From an uncultured Gammaproteobacteria bacterium (GTDB lineage: Bacteria > Patescibacteriota > Microgenomatia > UBA8517), in the NCBI GenBank assembly GCA_964430475.1, contig CAYSEQ010000005.1:1-61853 (forward strand): a stretch of 61,853 bases of DNA, written 5' to 3'. Below, piece after piece: positions 10,487 to 55,754 of the stretch. The notes below the pieces were generated by a model. It was given only the letters and a program-made list of their open reading frames with translations. It did no database searches and was not told the origin of the DNA. Position 1 is the first letter of the stretch; each line of letters starts with the position of its first letter. Made by a program: the position numbers and the translations under genes.

Positions 10487-13400
10487 GTGAAAAATTTTAA
10501 AATTTTATTTTTCAATAAAAATTCTTTTTGGATTAGCATTCTTCTTTTTCTTTTAACCTCTTTAGGAGCATATTATTCTTCTAACAGTCTTTTAGGGAAG
10601 AAAGAGCAATTAACTGAAACTCTGCAGCTGGAAGGACAAGGCCAAGTACAGTTCAAGCAAGGCAATCAGGAAGTCCAAGGAACAGTGTCAGGATATTTGA
10701 GGCCTCAGATCACATTTTTGGAGGGGACAAATGTTTTAATAGTGGAGGGTTGATACCGCTTGCTTCCACCGACGAGCCAGTTATAACTATAAGTGGGTAT
10801 GATCTAAAAGGTGATGCAGAAATCGAGATGTACGAAGCTGACGAGGGTTCGGTGATCAGGTATCTTGTCCACGATAAAGATGGAAATCAGATAAATAAGA
10901 ACCCAGATGTTAGCCAATTTCGATACATAACTTCGTTGAAGCAGAACCTGGGGACAGAAGGCTACACAAATACCAAAATTTCGCTTCCTTTTACAGAGAC
11001 AGGAATATTTTATCTAAAAGTCAAAATTGGTTCTATTAGCGCAGAATCCTTTGTTATAAGATCGAATTTTGGTGTTTTGGTAAGGGAGGGAGATAATCAG
11101 TTTATATTTTGGGGGCAAGATTTCAAGACCAAAAGAAGCGTTTCGGATGGAGTGATAAGGATAATGGATTTGCAGGATATTCCTAAGGAACTCCAGATAG
11201 TTTCCTTCGACACAGAGGGAATTGCTCGAGCAGATATTAATGCTATGGCAGATATAGCATTGGTTCAAAGGGGAGCTGATCGAGCAATTGTGCCTTTGAA
11301 TTTGAAATACATGAATCGTGAGAGTTATTATAAAGATTTTATACCGAAAGGAAGACCACTGAGGTATTTTATTTTTACTGATAGACCTCTTTATAAACCC
11401 GGAGACACCGTTTATTTTAAAGCAATTTTAAGAAATGATGACGATGCAAGATATTCGATTCCATCTGGAGAAGCCCTAGTGAGGATTTATAGATCCTCAA
11501 TTGATGCAAAGGTGGTCTTTGAGAAGAAAATTTCAATTTCAGAGAGAGGAACGATAGAAGGTCAATACCAAATTCCAGAAGATTCTAAAGTTGGTAATTA
11601 TCAATTGAGTGTAAATATTGATTCTCAAGTTGGGGAAGCTGATTATTGGAGTCATGAATTTTCATCTGGTTCAACTTCATTCGGCATTGAATACTTTAGA
11701 AAACCTGAGTTTTTTATTGATATCACAGCCCCTGTAACAGAATTGATAGCAGGCGATCGACTTACCTTCAAAATTAGTGGAACTTATTTTTCGGGTCAAC
11801 CCTTAATTGGTCAAAAAGTAAAATATGTAGTTTATTCGTCTGACTACTACCAGTACGATTATCTAACCAATCGACAAAAACCGATATTAAGTGATAACTA
11901 TAGATATGGCTATTGGACTGGTGGAATAGTTACAGAAGGAAATACAATACTGAATAAAGACGGGGAGGCAGAGGTAAATCTTGATACTAAGGTTAATTTT
12001 AGCGTGGGTTTAAATAAAATTTTTTCTATAGAGGTTACTACTGAAGGTGAAGTACAAAGCCCCGCTTTTAGTAGGAAAAACATCTTAATCTATTCTGGGG
12101 AGTATGCAATATTCAGGAAGGATGTAGGGCGAAATGAAAAAGTAAATACAACTGTTGACTTACCCATTATATTAATTCCGTACAATAACAACTTTAGTGT
12201 TTCAGAAGTGGAATTGAAGGCAAAGATTCAACGTAGTGATTGGATCAAGTATGATGACCCAAACCAAAAGTATCCAGTCTATAAAGAAGTAAGAGAAAGT
12301 TTACCCGATATCTTTACAAAAACGGACAGTCAAGGTGAGGCCAATTTTAGGTTTACTCCCTCCAAGACTGGATTATATACGTTGACAGTTGAAGGTAAAG
12401 ACTCTCGAGGGAATTTAATATCTCATGAGTTTTTCATTTATGTCACTGAGGAAGGACAGCCAGTATATGAAAAGGACAAAGTCTTTAAAGATATATCCAT
12501 ATCGGCTGATAAACGGAAATACTTTCCTAATGAATCCGTAAGGTTTTACATTTATTCTGAGATTCCTGATAGAGATATCTTCTTGTCATTAGAAAGGGGT
12601 AGGCTTGATAGATTTCGAGTTGTCCACCTTGATGGTAAAAATACTTATGTTGATATCCCCCTTGTCAACACTGATATACCTAATATATATGCTAATGTTT
12701 CAAGCTTCTCCGATAAAAGCTTAAATTTTGACGAAATTAACTTGAGTGTCTCGTCAGATAGCAAAAAAGTTGTTATAAATATAACTCCTAATAGTAAAAG
12801 ATTCGGTCCTGGGGAGACTGTGACTGTTGATATCCTTACTACAGATGTAGAGGGTAAACCTGTCTCAGGGGATCTTGCTTTATGGGCAGTTGATAAAGCT
12901 ATATTTGAACTTTCGTATAGTAGACTTGGGAATATATTTGATACTTTTTGGAAGGAGAGGTTTAATTCAACAAGCAGAGCCCATTCATTAGAAGGTATTT
13001 TTTTCTATGTTCCTGCGGAAATGGGTGGTTGTTTTGTTGGGGGAACTAAGGTTTTGATGGCTGATGGTAAGCTGAAGAACATAGAAGATGTTAAGATAGG
13101 GGATTATGTTTTGACGAGAAAGAGTGGTTACGATTCCACATTGGTCAAAGCGAGAGTTCTTAAAACTTACAAAGCTGAGGAGTCAGGTTATTTGATAATC
13201 AACGGAAATCTTAAAGTTACAGCTGACCACATAGTTTGGTCAAACGACGCCTGGAAGGAGGCTGGGAGTATTCAGATCGGGGACACCCTACTTGACGATA
13301 AAGGAAGGAAACTGAAGGTAAATTCTATCGAATGGCAGACGGAGAAGGTTAGTGTCTATAACCTTTTGGTTGAAAATTACCATAGCTATTTTGCAAATGG

Positions 13401-15795
13401 CATTTGGGTTCACAATGATAAAGTTTCTGCAAGAACTGTCTATAAAGATACAGCTTATTGGAACCCCTCGATTAGTACTGATTCGTCAGGCAGGGCACAA
13501 GTGAGGTTTAAATTACCCGATAATCTAACAACTTGGGTGATAGCTGCGGTTGCAGCAACAGCTGATACACAAGTTGGGCAGAGTACAACTGAAATTGTTG
13601 TTACAAAAGATGTAATAATTCGCCCAATACTACCTAATATATTTCGTAAAGGAGATGAGGTTGTAGTTTCAGCGTTAGTTCAAAACTTTACCCAGCAGGA
13701 TCACACTTTTGAAGTAGGCCTTGAATTTGATTCGGGGGAAGTGGAGCAAGAAGAACAAAATTCTGCGCTGATAAAATCTAACACAATGCAGAAGTTTCAC
13801 TGGAAGATAAAGCCAACGAAGGAAAATGAGAGATCAAAGCTTGTTTTTTCAGCAAAGGTTAAGGATAACCCTAGCTTGTCTGATATTGTTAGACAAGAAA
13901 TTCCTATAAGAGCTTTCGGTTTTGAAGAGGAAAGAGGGGAATCGGGAGAGGGAACGAAAAGTTATAACATTAAGCTTGCAGTTGATATCGACAAAGATAA
14001 ATCAAAAATTACTTTGTACTTAACGCCTAATATCCTAAGTTCTCTTCAACCAACTATGAAATATTTAATCAATTATCCTTATGGATGTGTAGAACAAACC
14101 ACCAGTAGATTTGTACCAGCGATTATAGCAAAGACCAACCCTGATTTATTTTCGGATGTTCCCGAAGATAAGAACTTGGATAAAATAATACAAAAAAGTA
14201 TCGAACTTCTCACAAGCCAGCAACAGAAGGATGGAGGTTGGACTTGGTGGTTTAGGGGCAGATCGGACCCCTTTATAGTTTCTTATGTTATAGAATATCT
14301 TTTACAAGCAAAGAAGTTAGGTTTCAAGGTTGAGGATGAGGTACTAGCTAGAGCCAAGAGATATTTAGAGGAAGAATTTACCTTTGACCCAAATACTGGC
14401 CAAAAAATACCATACAATAAAGAGGAGTCAATCGCAAAGAATTACGGTCTAATTTTGCTTGGTGAAAAAGAAAAGGTTAAGCGATTGACTGACCTTAATA
14501 ATATAAGCCCCGATTTTCTATCCATTGCGGTAATGGCTAATTATCTAAATGGTGATAAAAACCCACAGAGTAATGGTTTGATTCAACTTTCCTCGTTAGC
14601 AAAAACTCAAGGGGATGTTGTTTTCTGGGAAGCAGGGAATAAATTAAATTTTGGTTCAAAAGAAGCATCGACTGCTTTAGCTATAAGAGCTCTTCTTCTT
14701 GCCGGAGGAGATAGAGATTTAGTGATTAAAGGAGCAAAATATCTAATTCGACACAAAAACCTATATTGGTCAAATACTTTTGCAGCATCCCAGGCAGTAA
14801 GAGCTTTGGCTGAGTTTTCGAATACATTTAAACAGCTAGAGCCAAATTATAGTTACATTGTTACCTTGGATGGGAAGCAAATTTCCCAAGGAAAAGTTAC
14901 TGATGCAAAACAAGTCATAAAAGAGATTGATGTACCAATTTCAAAAATAAGACCAGATGGTTCGACACTTTCTGTGGTTAAAGAAGGTGAAGGACAAATT
15001 TATTCGACTCTATTAGTGAGAGAGTTTCATACAGATAAAAATGCTAAGGCTGTAAATCGCGGTTTTTCGATCAAAAAAGAATTTGTTAATGAAAGAGGAT
15101 TGGGTTTTAGCTTTGGAGTTGGAGATATCGTTATTGTAAAAATTACAGTAAAAGGTTTACAAGCAGAAGAAAATTATGGTGTTATCAAGGACGATTTGCC
15201 TGCGGGTTTGGTTCCTATAAACCAATCATTTAAAAATGAGAGATTCAACCAACCGGATTATTATGGGTATGGGGGTTTGGTAGGTGGAGAAGTAACAGAG
15301 AATGGGATTATTTTGTCGCTTTATAAAATAAATGCTGGTGAAAACATTTACACTTATAGGGCAAGGGTAGTTAATGCAGGAAAGTTTATCGTTCCTCCAG
15401 TTTCTATTTCACTGATGTATTCTCCTGAGATCTCTGGAGTATCGGAGGTAGGGTCAATTGAGGTAGTTGAAGAATCTAAATATATCGGAATTGAGTCAAT
15501 TGTTGAAAAGAGTAGAGAAAGCGTGAGGAGTACCCTGAATCAAAAAGAAAATCTTATTAGTTTATTTCTGATAGTCATTTTAACATTGACAGTTCTATCT
15601 TATTTATTCCTTAGGAATGGAGGAATTGTAAAAATAAAGGTTTTCAAAAGTCGATTGGCTAACTTAGTTAAGGATAAGGTTAAAAAACTTTTTAGAGTAG
15701 GAGAGCATTATCGATCAGAAGCAATTACAAGAAGGGTAAAAAGTGATAATTTTCCAGGCTCTTCTAATGATGACAAAAATAGTGGTGATAGTTAA
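10487..15795 (+). CDS. Alpha-2-macroglobulin family thioester protein with Hint insertion; N-terminal 10487-10719 is out of frame with the main ORF 10750-15795
   Basis: FIFTDRPLYKPGDTVYF (MG2), DTAYWNP, FKLPDNLTTW, YPYGCVEQ thioester (14086-14097), YTYRARVVNAGKFIVPP; signal/TM segment in the 10487 ORF; C-terminal TM. Confidence 0.92.
13030..13416 (+). other. Hint (intein-like, BIL/PT-HINT type) domain, 129 aa, no homing endonuclease
   Basis: CFVGGTKVLMADG (block A), VTADH (TxxH, block B), VYNLLVENYHSYFANG (block F), VHN (block G) followed by Asp. Confidence 0.92.
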
Positions 15796-53717: not shown

Positions 53718-54336
53718 TTTTATTTTTTTAAAGTCTTTTGCCAAATTTTTTATAGCACAAGGATAAAGAAAGAGGGGAGAGGGAGAGGAAGTAAGTCAAG
53801 TAAAATATTATAGGGTAATATATAAACTTGAATTTTCACGAAAATTATAGGGTATTTTCACGCTGCGGTACAAAGTCTTTAATCCCAAGAATACCCGAAA
53901 AAAGGTTAAAAGAAAGATCCGGACGAAGTAGAAGATAAAGTAAAAGATTAAGTTTTGATCTTTATTGCATTTCTATCACTTTATTACCTCCCACTCAAAA
54001 ACTTTTCTATTAATTTCAATTGTTATACTTTGATATAGTTTTTAGCTTCATTTTTGACTTTTAAGCATTTTTAAAGACCCTTTTTATAAACCGTCCAAAA
54101 ATTTTGCATAGATTTTAGTTTAAGAGTTTGTGGATAATTTCAAGTGGCCTAAAAAATAATGACAAAAATAAAAAAAATAAAAAATTGAACTTATTAATAA
54201 TAAAAAAATAAAAGGAGCGAAAGTTTTTGGACGATGATAATTTATCTATCTCCTCTTAAATTTTAATGCCATTTTTAAATTAGCTTAAAAAGCTTTAAAA
54301 TAAAGACAAAAAACAGCGAGGGGATAAAATTACTCT

Positions 54337-54364
54337 ATGTCGCACAATAATACTTTTACGAACA
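54337..54364. other. Candidate dif (Xer recombination) site
   Basis: ATGTCGCACAA-TAATAC-TTTTACGAACA: 11-6-11 imperfect palindrome; left arm resembles the E. coli dif arm GGTGCGCATAA; about 430 bp upstream of xer. Confidence 0.6.
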
Positions 54365-54747
54365 ATATAGCTTTAAGTTAGAGGAGGAGGTTTTTTTTAT
54401 CAATTTCCTAGTAAAGAACTTTCTTTATGTTTTTCTTTCAAATATTTATTTTTAAAGATTTTATTTCCCTTTTAATAGGTTGTCCCAAAATATTAAACCA
54501 AAAAAATCCCGAAGAAAATATGCTAATATCTAATACTGATTAATCCCCTACCCCTACAAATTTTGAGCATTTAAGTTTCCAAAAAATCCTATCATTCGGT
54601 AAATTTGAGATAATTTTCATTTTAAACGATAAAAATTTTCTAAATAATCAAATAATAAATTTGATAAAAATTTTGGGTTAATAGGCTGGGAAGGTTAGAA
54701 TCTGATTGATCTTAAAGCTTTATAAATTTCAAAAGACTTTTTTGAAA

Positions 54748-54789
54748 TTGTCGCACAATATTGACAAAGTTTTAGGAACATTATAGACT
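54748..54789 (+). promoter_or_regulatory. xer promoter overlapped by a second copy of both dif-like arms
   Basis: TTGACA (54761-54766), 17 nt, TAGACT (54784-54789), ATG 54798; arms TTGTCGCACAA (54748-54758) and TTTTAGGAACA (54770-54780). Confidence 0.7.
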
Positions 54790-54797
54790 TTTATAGC

Positions 54798-55754
54798 ATG
54801 CCCGAATCTGCCTCTTCTCAGACTTCAGATCTTGAGAAAAAAATAAATATGTTTCTTGAATTTCTTGAGATTGAGAAAGGTTGCTCTTCTTTGACAATTA
54901 GAAATTACAGACACTATTTAAATCGTTTTTCCCAATGGCTTAAAAGGGAAGGAATTAGTTTGAGGGTAGAAGATATAAATCCTGAGGTAATTCGGCAGTA
55001 CAGGGTATATCTTTCAAGGCTTTCGGATGGTAAAGGTGGGTATTTAAGCCGTAAAACCCAAGGATATCACGCAATTGCATTAAGGAGTTTCTTACGCTTC
55101 CTTATAAAGAATGATTTTAAAGTAATGTCGCCGGATAAGATTGATCTTCCAAAAGTTTCGGAAAGACAGGTAAAATTTCTGACAGGTGAACAAATTGAGA
55201 GACTTCTTAACGCACCTTCGCTTTCGACGATCCAAGGAAAAAGAGACAAGGCAATATTAGAAGTTTTATTTTCAACTGGACTTAGGGTTTCGGAACTTGT
55301 AAAGCTAGATCGTGATAAAATTGATCTGGAAAGAAGAGAGTTTGGAATTGTGGGAAAAGGAGGACGAGCAAGAGTAGTTTTTCTATCTACTAGAGCCACT
55401 GAATATCTAAAAAAGTATTTATCTGAAAGGAAAGATAACTTTAAACCTCTTTTTATTCGTCATAAAGGTAAAAAGGATGTAACTTTAAGCGATGAGGATG
55501 TAAGGCTTACGGTAAGGTCTATTCAAAGAATGATTAAAAATTACGGAAGAAAAATAAAGTTGCCGATTGAAGTCACACCTCATGTCATTCGACATTCTTT
55601 TGCGACTGATCTTTTGATGGCGGGTGCGGATTTAAGAAGTGTACAGGAAATGCTAGGACACAAAAATGTTTCAACCACTCAAATTTATACCCATGTTACC
55701 CATAAACATTTGCGCGAAATTCATGAAGCTTTTCATGGTAAGGGAGGTGGATAA
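54798..55754 (+). CDS. xer: Xer-family tyrosine recombinase (XerC/XerD-like)
   Basis: TIRNYRHYL, RDKAILEVLFSTGLRVSEL, GKGGRAR, TPHVIRHSFATDLL, LGHKNVSTTQIYTHV (R-K-H-R-H-Y intact). Confidence 0.93.
   Translation: MPESASSQTSDLEKKINMFLEFLEIEKGCSSLTIRNYRHYLNRFSQWLKREGISLRVEDINPEVIRQYRVYLSRLSDGKGGYLSRKTQGYHAIALRSFLRFLIKNDFKVMSPDKIDLPKVSERQVKFLTGEQIERLLNAPSLSTIQGKRDKAILEVLFSTGLRVSELVKLDRDKIDLERREFGIVGKGGRARVVFLSTRATEYLKKYLSERKDNFKPLFIRHKGKKDVTLSDEDVRLTVRSIQRMIKNYGRKIKLPIEVTPHVIRHSFATDLLMAGADLRSVQEMLGHKNVSTTQIYTHVTHKHLREIHEAFHGKGGG

Follow-up and report, generated by a model that had tools for sequence, protein, structure and literature searches.

A candidate Xer recombination site linked to xer in Microgenomates, with one of its arms repeated on the xer promoter

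At which DNA site does the Xer recombinase of an uncultured bacterium act, and how might its own synthesis be controlled? These questions were raised by contig CAYSEQ010000005.1 (GenBank assembly GCA_964430475.1), whose forward-strand positions 1 to 61,853, the whole stretch analysed herein and referred to as the window, include at 54798–55754 (+ strand) the gene xer for a 318-aa tyrosine recombinase of the XerC/D/A type. A first-pass annotation of the bare sequence had described two related sites ahead of this gene, site 1 at 54337–54364 and site 2 at 54748–54780, with each pair of arms identical at 10 of 11 positions, which direct reading of the sequence bore out; it had taken site 1 for the dif site that resolves chromosome dimers at the replication terminus, and site 2 for a mis-spaced second dif that represses xer. 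From the comparisons described below, we consider it probable that the locus is a xer-linked recombination module in which a core site would serve dimer resolution and also mobile elements, and a half-site on the xer promoter would serve feedback. As judged from the neighbouring genes and the relatives found, the window belongs to the Candidate Phyla Radiation (CPR), in its Microgenomates (Woesebacteria-like) part. A full-text literature search for CPR/Patescibacteria found no described dif site or Xer system, in keeping with the annotation's remark that no defined dif was known for this lineage.

The core, its recombinase and its occurrence on mobile elements

Site 1, hereafter the core, consists of the left arm ATGTCGCACAA (54337–54347, +), the 6-bp centre TAATAC (54348–54353, +) and the right arm TTTTACGAACA (54354–54364, +), and shows the general layout of dif, namely a site of about 28 bp in non-coding DNA with two imperfect inverted arms of about 11 bp around a 6-bp centre. 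The 24-bp pattern GTCG[CT]ACAA-N6-TTTT[AG]CGAC was searched for in 80 related Microgenomates loci, taken as stretches of about 20 kb, and was present in about 66 of the 80 genomes, with one copy per 20-kb locus (and one in the whole 62-kb window), in a fixed orientation and 0.35–4.5 kb upstream of xer (459 bp in the window); away from the core and the xer promoter, the arms occurred at chance frequency. Most of the loci lacking the core have less than 700 nt of upstream sequence. The 11-6-11 site that the annotation had placed beside xer was thus found to be conserved in the relatives, and its genetic linkage to xer is that of single-recombinase modules.

Alignment of 69 orthologous sites revealed about 2 bits per position over the conserved part of the left arm, GTCG[CT]ACAA (54339–54347 in the window), a family consensus of TTTT[AG]CGACGT for the right arm, and little information in the flanks. 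The centre was invariably 6 bp long, reading TAATAC in 41 of the 69 sites and TATAAC, TGATAC, TGTAAC or other sequences in the remainder. The two arms are nearly one sequence inverted (GTCGCACAA vs. GTCGCAAAA), and such near-symmetry fits a single recombinase acting on both of them. At the single variable arm position, C was paired with A in 16 of the 69 sites (Fisher p = 0.12), indicating that the arms vary independently, which argues for protein-binding DNA rather than an RNA stem; a reading of the palindrome as an RNA hairpin or stem was rejected, since its variable arm positions do not co-vary. Site 1 is very likely to be a genuine Xer core.

The recombinase was assigned from domain and NCBIfam models, structure comparison and an ortholog alignment. 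It comprises Phage_integrase and SAM_1 domains, and its catalytic residues R163, K187, H262, R265, H288 and Y297, which make up the R-K-H-R-H/W-Y set of Xer-group recombinases, were at least 97% conserved among 79 orthologs. The best NCBIfam models were XerD, XerC and XerA; the curated cut-off was passed for XerA_Arch alone (NF040815, 230.9 bits vs. a cut-off of 220), a model whose name also spans integron integrases and which XerD and XerC outscore in raw bits. The nearest solved structures were those of E. coli XerD (E = 4e-44) and archaeal XerA, while XerH was far weaker (E = 2e-12), and with 127.6 bits against a cut-off of 267 for the XerS model the protein falls outside the XerS/XerH clades. 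No second xer paralog was found in the 61.8-kb window, and among the 80 loci one was present only in L065 and L077, both of which lack the core.

Several of these properties recur in known systems. In XerS/difSL of streptococci and lactococci and in XerH/difH of Helicobacter and Campylobacter, as in the window, gene and site together make up a single module, near-symmetric arms have an inner part of the AAAA/TTTT type, and one protein is presumed to occupy both arms (PMC5357621); however, the proteins of those two clades measure 350–360 aa, their centres are 11 bp long and the site is immediately adjacent to the gene, whereas the present protein has 318 aa and is of the XerC/D/A type, the centre has 6 bp, and the site lies at 0.35–4.5 kb from xer in the group and not at the skew switch. 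The archaeal XerA/dif system shares the 11-6-11 layout and the nearly identical arms, together with the XerA_Arch cut-off passed by the window protein, and in Sulfolobales dif is close to xerA with a conserved flank on one side, as here (PMC2958812), but the ATAA/TTAT-type consensus of the archaeal sites is unrelated to the window arms and the window organism is bacterial. XerL/dif of Legionellales is likewise a lineage-specific, overlooked dif with a single recombinase that was revealed by a dif mimic on a mobile element (PMC9765430); XerL, however, constitutes a distinct clade whose function was shown experimentally.

Mobile elements carry the core as well. When viral contigs were searched for the two arms around a centre of any sequence, at least 120 of them (L081–L200; GC 30–61%) proved to bear the arms, with various 6-bp centres. 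With a profile built from the 79 Xer orthologs and applied to the available stretches of the listed contigs, a tyrosine-recombinase open reading frame (ORF) was detected in only 3 of 120, and the Microgenomates gene order occurred on none of those listed, a weak Xer match being seen on one only. Zot-like morphogenesis ATPases, typical of filamentous phages (inoviruses), were encoded on at least 23 of the listed viral contigs, several of the Zot-bearing ones being whole contigs of 4–6 kb, and one plasmid-like contig with the core encoded a primase and a replication-relaxation protein. In a metagenome scan (at least 120 contigs, L201–L320), centres of the Microgenomates type went with the xer-linked gene order, and many other contigs bore the core without that order; some of the latter were chromosomal (72–346 kb), and in three contigs the core came after the genes for GluRS and/or MurG and was followed by variable genes, some of mobile-element type. 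Phage-like contigs and large chromosomal ones with a similar GC content had an identical 24-bp core in common, and the core with the centre TATATC was found in 54 unrelated contexts.

Furthermore, several groups of elements were identified in which one flank is common and divergence begins exactly at the core (L089/L100, L104/L138 and L109/L198 in one set, and L135/L283 vs. L176 in a second), which is the footprint expected of recombination at that place. Elements without an integrase, together with this flank exchange, provide the strongest evidence, albeit indirect, that the core is a working Xer target. The same pattern is displayed by Xer-exploiting elements and by plasmid cer/psi sites (PMC5357621; PMC9765430): as with the integrative mobile elements exploiting Xer (IMEX) CTXphi, VGJphi and TLCphi and with cer/psi plasmids, filamentous-phage-like or plasmid-like elements carry a host-type Xer core here, but the centres are not the TAATAC of Microgenomates, TAATCA coming nearest among those listed with 4 of 6 bases. 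An IMEX is a mobile element that has a dif-like site but does not encode a recombinase; this description suits the related contigs and not the window, and in the 80 Microgenomates loci neither inovirus genes integrated beside the core nor an integrated copy bounded by two sites were found.

Among the core-bearing contigs, L238 (7490 bp) displayed three identical cores exactly 2398 bp apart: either they form a tandem array, or a circular element of 2.4 kb with the site was assembled as a concatemer.

The left arm on the xer promoter

Site 2 reads TTGTCGCACAA (54748–54758), TATTGACAAAG (54759–54769) and TTTTAGGAACA (54770–54780), and the TTGACA within its spacer proved to be the −35 element of xer, as had been proposed. 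The promoter (54761–54789, +) comprises this TTGACA at 54761–54766, a spacer of 17 nt and the −10 element TAGACT at 54784–54789, followed after 8 nt by the ATG of xer, and its geometry, TTGACA-17-TAnnnT with a like distance to the ATG, is kept in about 47 relatives. A solitary copy of the left arm, GTCGCACAAT (54750–54759, +), ends one base before the −35 element. The exact 10-mer TGTCGCACAA occurs at two places only in 61.8 kb, namely in sites 1 and 2, with 0.08 expected from the base composition.

A motif search upstream of the orthologous xer genes, as the annotation had suggested, covered the interval from −160 to +10 of xer in the 79 genomes with adequate upstream sequence. The arm 9-mer was detected there in 64 of the 79 genomes, against 0.007 expected per interval, and as a single copy on the coding strand in 61 of these 64; outside the core and the xer promoter it stayed at chance level (58 seen vs. 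65 expected over 1.45 Mb). Two types of promoter were recognized. In the Woesebacteria-like type, which includes the window, GTCGCACAAT is followed by 1–4 nt, TTGACA, a 17-nt spacer and TAnnnT, with the −10 element ending 7–9 nt before the ATG. In the Levy-, Curtiss- and Gottesmanbacteria-like type, the arm lies over the −10 element (TTGACA-17-[GTCG]TA(C/G/A)AAT), a few bases before the ATG. That the arm tracks the promoter while its place within the promoter shifts argues for an operator rather than a promoter element, and as far as sequence goes, a motif overlapping the core promoter of its own gene is the arrangement of an autoregulated recombinase. An arm placed over the −10 element should repress, and we hold with moderate confidence that the promoter arm acts as an operator for Xer. 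In the full-text search, one paper paired "Xer recombinase" with "autoregulation", and its title was unrelated. Because the −10 element ends 7–9 nt before the ATG and no Shine-Dalgarno sequence is present at the xer start, in the window and in its relatives, the xer mRNA is probably leaderless across the group.

We propose that Xer would bind the near-symmetric 28-bp core (54337–54364; arms GTCGCACAA and TTTTACGAA) as two protomers and would exchange strands across the 6-bp centre. The likeliest cellular use of the core would be the resolution of chromosome dimers, mobile elements may use the same core, and free Xer would feed back on its own synthesis through the single left arm on the xer promoter, most plausibly by repression. 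Xer binding, dimer resolution and the direction of regulation are what we infer from the patterns described above.

Other features of the promoter region were also observed. The motif CTGCC(C), located at 54808–54812 of the window just inside the xer coding start, recurs 54–63 nt past the promoter arm in about 19 of the 64 genomes; compared by eye, its reading frame is not constant, and this would hint that the constraint acts on the nucleotides. In many Woesebacteria (L002, L019, L021, L024, L029, L032, L041 and L077), the promoter spacer keeps TTGACACTTCG-N-GCTCAGTGTAAACT, and L042 and L050 show a matching double change, TTGATGGTTCG..CTCACCACAAGC; this conserved pair could be a second operator or a hairpin. 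A gene for an HAD-like protein of about 230–250 aa, missing from the window, stands between the core and xer in many relatives (e.g., L021 9184–9939), and in several of them its final codons (..NVAQY) cross the promoter arm, with the stop codon within the −35 element.

Chromosomal position of the core and rival readings

Genes converge on the core from both sides, as the annotation had noted. Within 8 kb to the left, 5879 coding bases are on the + strand and 755 on the − strand; within 8 kb to the right, the corresponding values are 1462 and 4756, and over 52 loci 85% of the coding bases on the left lie on the xer strand and 68% of those on the right on the opposite strand. In the window, cumulative GC skew reaches its maximum near 56 kb, a turn that reflects the change of coding strand. 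The skew switch predicted near 54.3 kb did not materialize: skew at third codon positions (GC3 skew) had the same sign on both sides of the core out to 10–22 kb. Measured on the coding strand, it amounted to +0.178 for + genes and −0.176 for − genes on the left, and to +0.128 and −0.137, respectively, on the right. All 1-kb bins from −10 to +11 kb were positive in top-strand skew (about 68 genomes), and no locus displayed a clear left-positive/right-negative inversion, a few right-hand values being near zero; the window's own two right-hand genes gave a skew near zero and are ambiguous. The GC-skew inflection that marks the terminus at a generic dif was not encountered within the stretches covered. 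Skew at the cores of other lineages was too noisy on short contigs to be usable.

Several points weigh against the proposed module. The right arm of the core in the window reads CGAA, not CGAC, with A replacing the nearly invariant C at 54362. Sitting just ahead of the −35 element, an arm could activate rather than repress. Irrespective of the strand of the genes, top-strand GC3 skew was +0.18 on the left of the site and +0.13 on the right, and in two genomes retrieved by a search with the window's pyrophosphatase it stayed positive as far as +19 kb and +22 kb, respectively. In CP066686.1, a complete genome of 1,079 kb, the locus is situated near 852 kb, some 79% along the record; the depositing laboratory's protocol sets the start of a finished genome at the origin (PMC7111523), and if it was followed here, the site would, by this indirect argument, lie mid-replichore, and the local skew sign fits the second replichore. 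In Legionella, dif sites are up to 79 kb from the skew inflection (PMC9765430), which leaves room for a terminus some tens of kb from the core; unlike in Legionellales, however, no skew inversion was seen here within 19–22 kb, and the genomes are likely near 1 Mb (1.08 Mb in the complete relative). With these points weighed, we lean only slightly towards chromosome dimer resolution as the role of the core.

The alternative that survives best, though we regard it as unlikely, takes the core for a cer/psi-like resolution or docking site off the terminus, with the motif array on its left as an accessory sequence at which architectural proteins, possibly DnaA, would provide directionality without FtsK. 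The array lies in an ORF-poor, AT-rich gap of 1.08 kb (53718–54797), which also holds the core and the xer promoter and has a similar counterpart in relatives. It comprises two direct TTTTCACG repeats 22 bp apart (53833–53862, +; starts at 53833 and 53855), the motif GATATAG (54032–54038, +) within the extended −10-like TGATATAGT, and the perfect DnaA-box 9-mer TTATCCACA (54129–54137, −) 210 nt left of the core. Across loci, 132 + strand copies of the repeat TTTTCAC[AG] (TTTTCACR) were counted in the 750 nt to the left of the core, vs. 0.3 per 250-bp bin far off, with pairs spaced by 21–23 bp in the related contigs listed, and GATAYAG was over-represented to the left of the DnaA box, again on the + strand. 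About 57 of the 69 loci have one perfect DnaA box in the same orientation at 120–720 nt to the left of the core. This one-sided, oriented array and the distance of the core from a skew switch speak for a cer/psi-like site, as do the perfect DnaA box 160–300 nt from the core in phage-like and plasmid-like elements, the NCBIfam cut-off passed for archaeal XerA only, a recombinase described as FtsK-independent (PMC5357621), and the position of the Sulfolobales dif near xerA (PMC2958812). In the mobile elements, however, the box stands on the side of the opposite arm; moreover, the array-core distance varies sixfold, and the motifs are linked to no protein; the array may instead serve transcription or another chromosome function. 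It could be a recombination accessory sequence as at cer/psi, a promoter, or an element controlled by DnaA.

We rate as quite improbable the annotation's full proposal, in which dif marks the terminus and five extra spacer bases make of site 2, a full copy of dif, a site that two Xer protomers would bind without recombining it, thereby repressing xer. Besides the gene convergence and the cumulative skew peak described above, it draws support from the right arm of site 2: positions 54770–54790 (+), in the promoter spacer and −10 element, match the core right arm and its flank (54354–54374) at 17 of 21 positions, the sole match of at least 16 of 21 in the window (P about 5e-5 for a match within 40 positions of the anchor in sequence of the gap's composition), and both right-arm copies carry the rare GAAC variant. 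Right-arm-like elements near the promoter arm were also seen in two relatives, L226 (at 15 bp) and L051 (at 17 bp). Against it stand the same-sign skew at synonymous sites out to 10–22 kb and the restriction of the copy to this genome; it is not in the closest relatives L001, L300, L314 and L275 (74–77% Xer identity to the window), and mis-spaced right arms beside solitary arms were not enriched (6 seen vs. 2.8 expected). Because the similarity continues into the flank and the −10 region, we take it for the outcome of recent copying between promoter and core flank, in either direction, rather than of selection for a second arm. Of the dif copy that had been seen on the xer promoter, the left arm is conserved and the right arm is not, and an operator in the form of a mis-spaced full dif is correspondingly improbable.

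It is far less likely that the motif is the operator of some other DNA-binding protein regulating xer and its neighbours, with no recombination site involved. Palindromes of this size often serve as operators, and the motif is indeed present on a promoter, but a lone half-site in 61 of 64 promoters would be unexpected for a dimeric regulator, the full palindrome stands 0.35–4.5 kb from xer and often with another gene between, and the same core on integrase-less inovirus-like elements, together with the flank exchange, fits recombination. Equally remote is a replication origin in the AT-rich gap with the Xer site associated with it, a reading favoured by the perfect DnaA box, the direct repeats at 21–23-bp spacing and a very AT-rich tract at 54140–54215 but rejected on skew and gene orientation: the skew is positive on both sides, not negative and then positive, the genes converge on the gap and do not diverge from it, each locus has one DnaA box and not the box cluster of an oriC, no dnaA match was obtained in the fetched loci with E. 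coli query fragments, and the CP066686.1 locus is not at the record start.

Gene neighbourhood and implications

In the window, xer is surrounded by genes for YebC, a DUF5656 protein, a small hydrolase, GyrA and an H+/Na+ pyrophosphatase. The conserved order runs from a Na+/H+ exchanger gene through a gene of 306 aa, a TPR gene and the YebC and DUF5656 genes to a gap, the core, a second gap, the optional HAD-like gene, xer and, on the opposite strand, gyrA; beyond gyrA, relatives have the pyrophosphatase gene, gyrB and holB. In L323 and L325, gyrB, the pyrophosphatase gene and gyrA share a strand and are no more than 12 kb away from the core, holB adjoins them, and neither dnaA nor dnaN was among the called genes of these two. 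Searches of the fetched loci by tblastn gave no match for dnaA or ftsK, a weak negative, as the queries were E. coli fragments. On its right-hand side, the core is followed by a G-rich patch and then some 80 nt of T-rich, G-poor sequence (together 54381–54470 in the window; +43 to +130 in relatives), after which comes the C-rich motif CCCCTACCCC (54545 in the window). No conserved small ORF after the core was seen in the first six loci read, and the gap yielded no credible non-coding RNA in Rfam at gathering scores or at E up to 10, and no tRNA, tmRNA or intrinsic terminator. At a distance from this locus, the window encodes an alpha-2-macroglobulin-like protein of 1681 aa (10750–15795) with a Hint/intein-type domain at residues 760–890.

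More broadly, and only tentatively, one type of dif with the arms GTCGCACAA and TTTTRCGAC might serve a very broad range of uncultured bacteria, probably much of CPR. It would lie mid-replichore in Microgenomates with the DnaA-box/iteron-like array as its accessory, dimer resolution would be uncoupled from the terminus as in Sulfolobus or at cer, filamentous phages lacking an integrase would exploit the site, and the half-site on a leaderless promoter would gauge the level of Xer.

If the proposed module is true, the 24-bp core would provide a sequence marker by which a large uncultured group's dimer-resolution site could be recognized, and phages and plasmids without an integrase would become linkable to such hosts. 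The locus would also represent a bacterial case of an Xer site off the skew switch, and a simple design for feedback in which a single recombinase arm is placed on a leaderless promoter.

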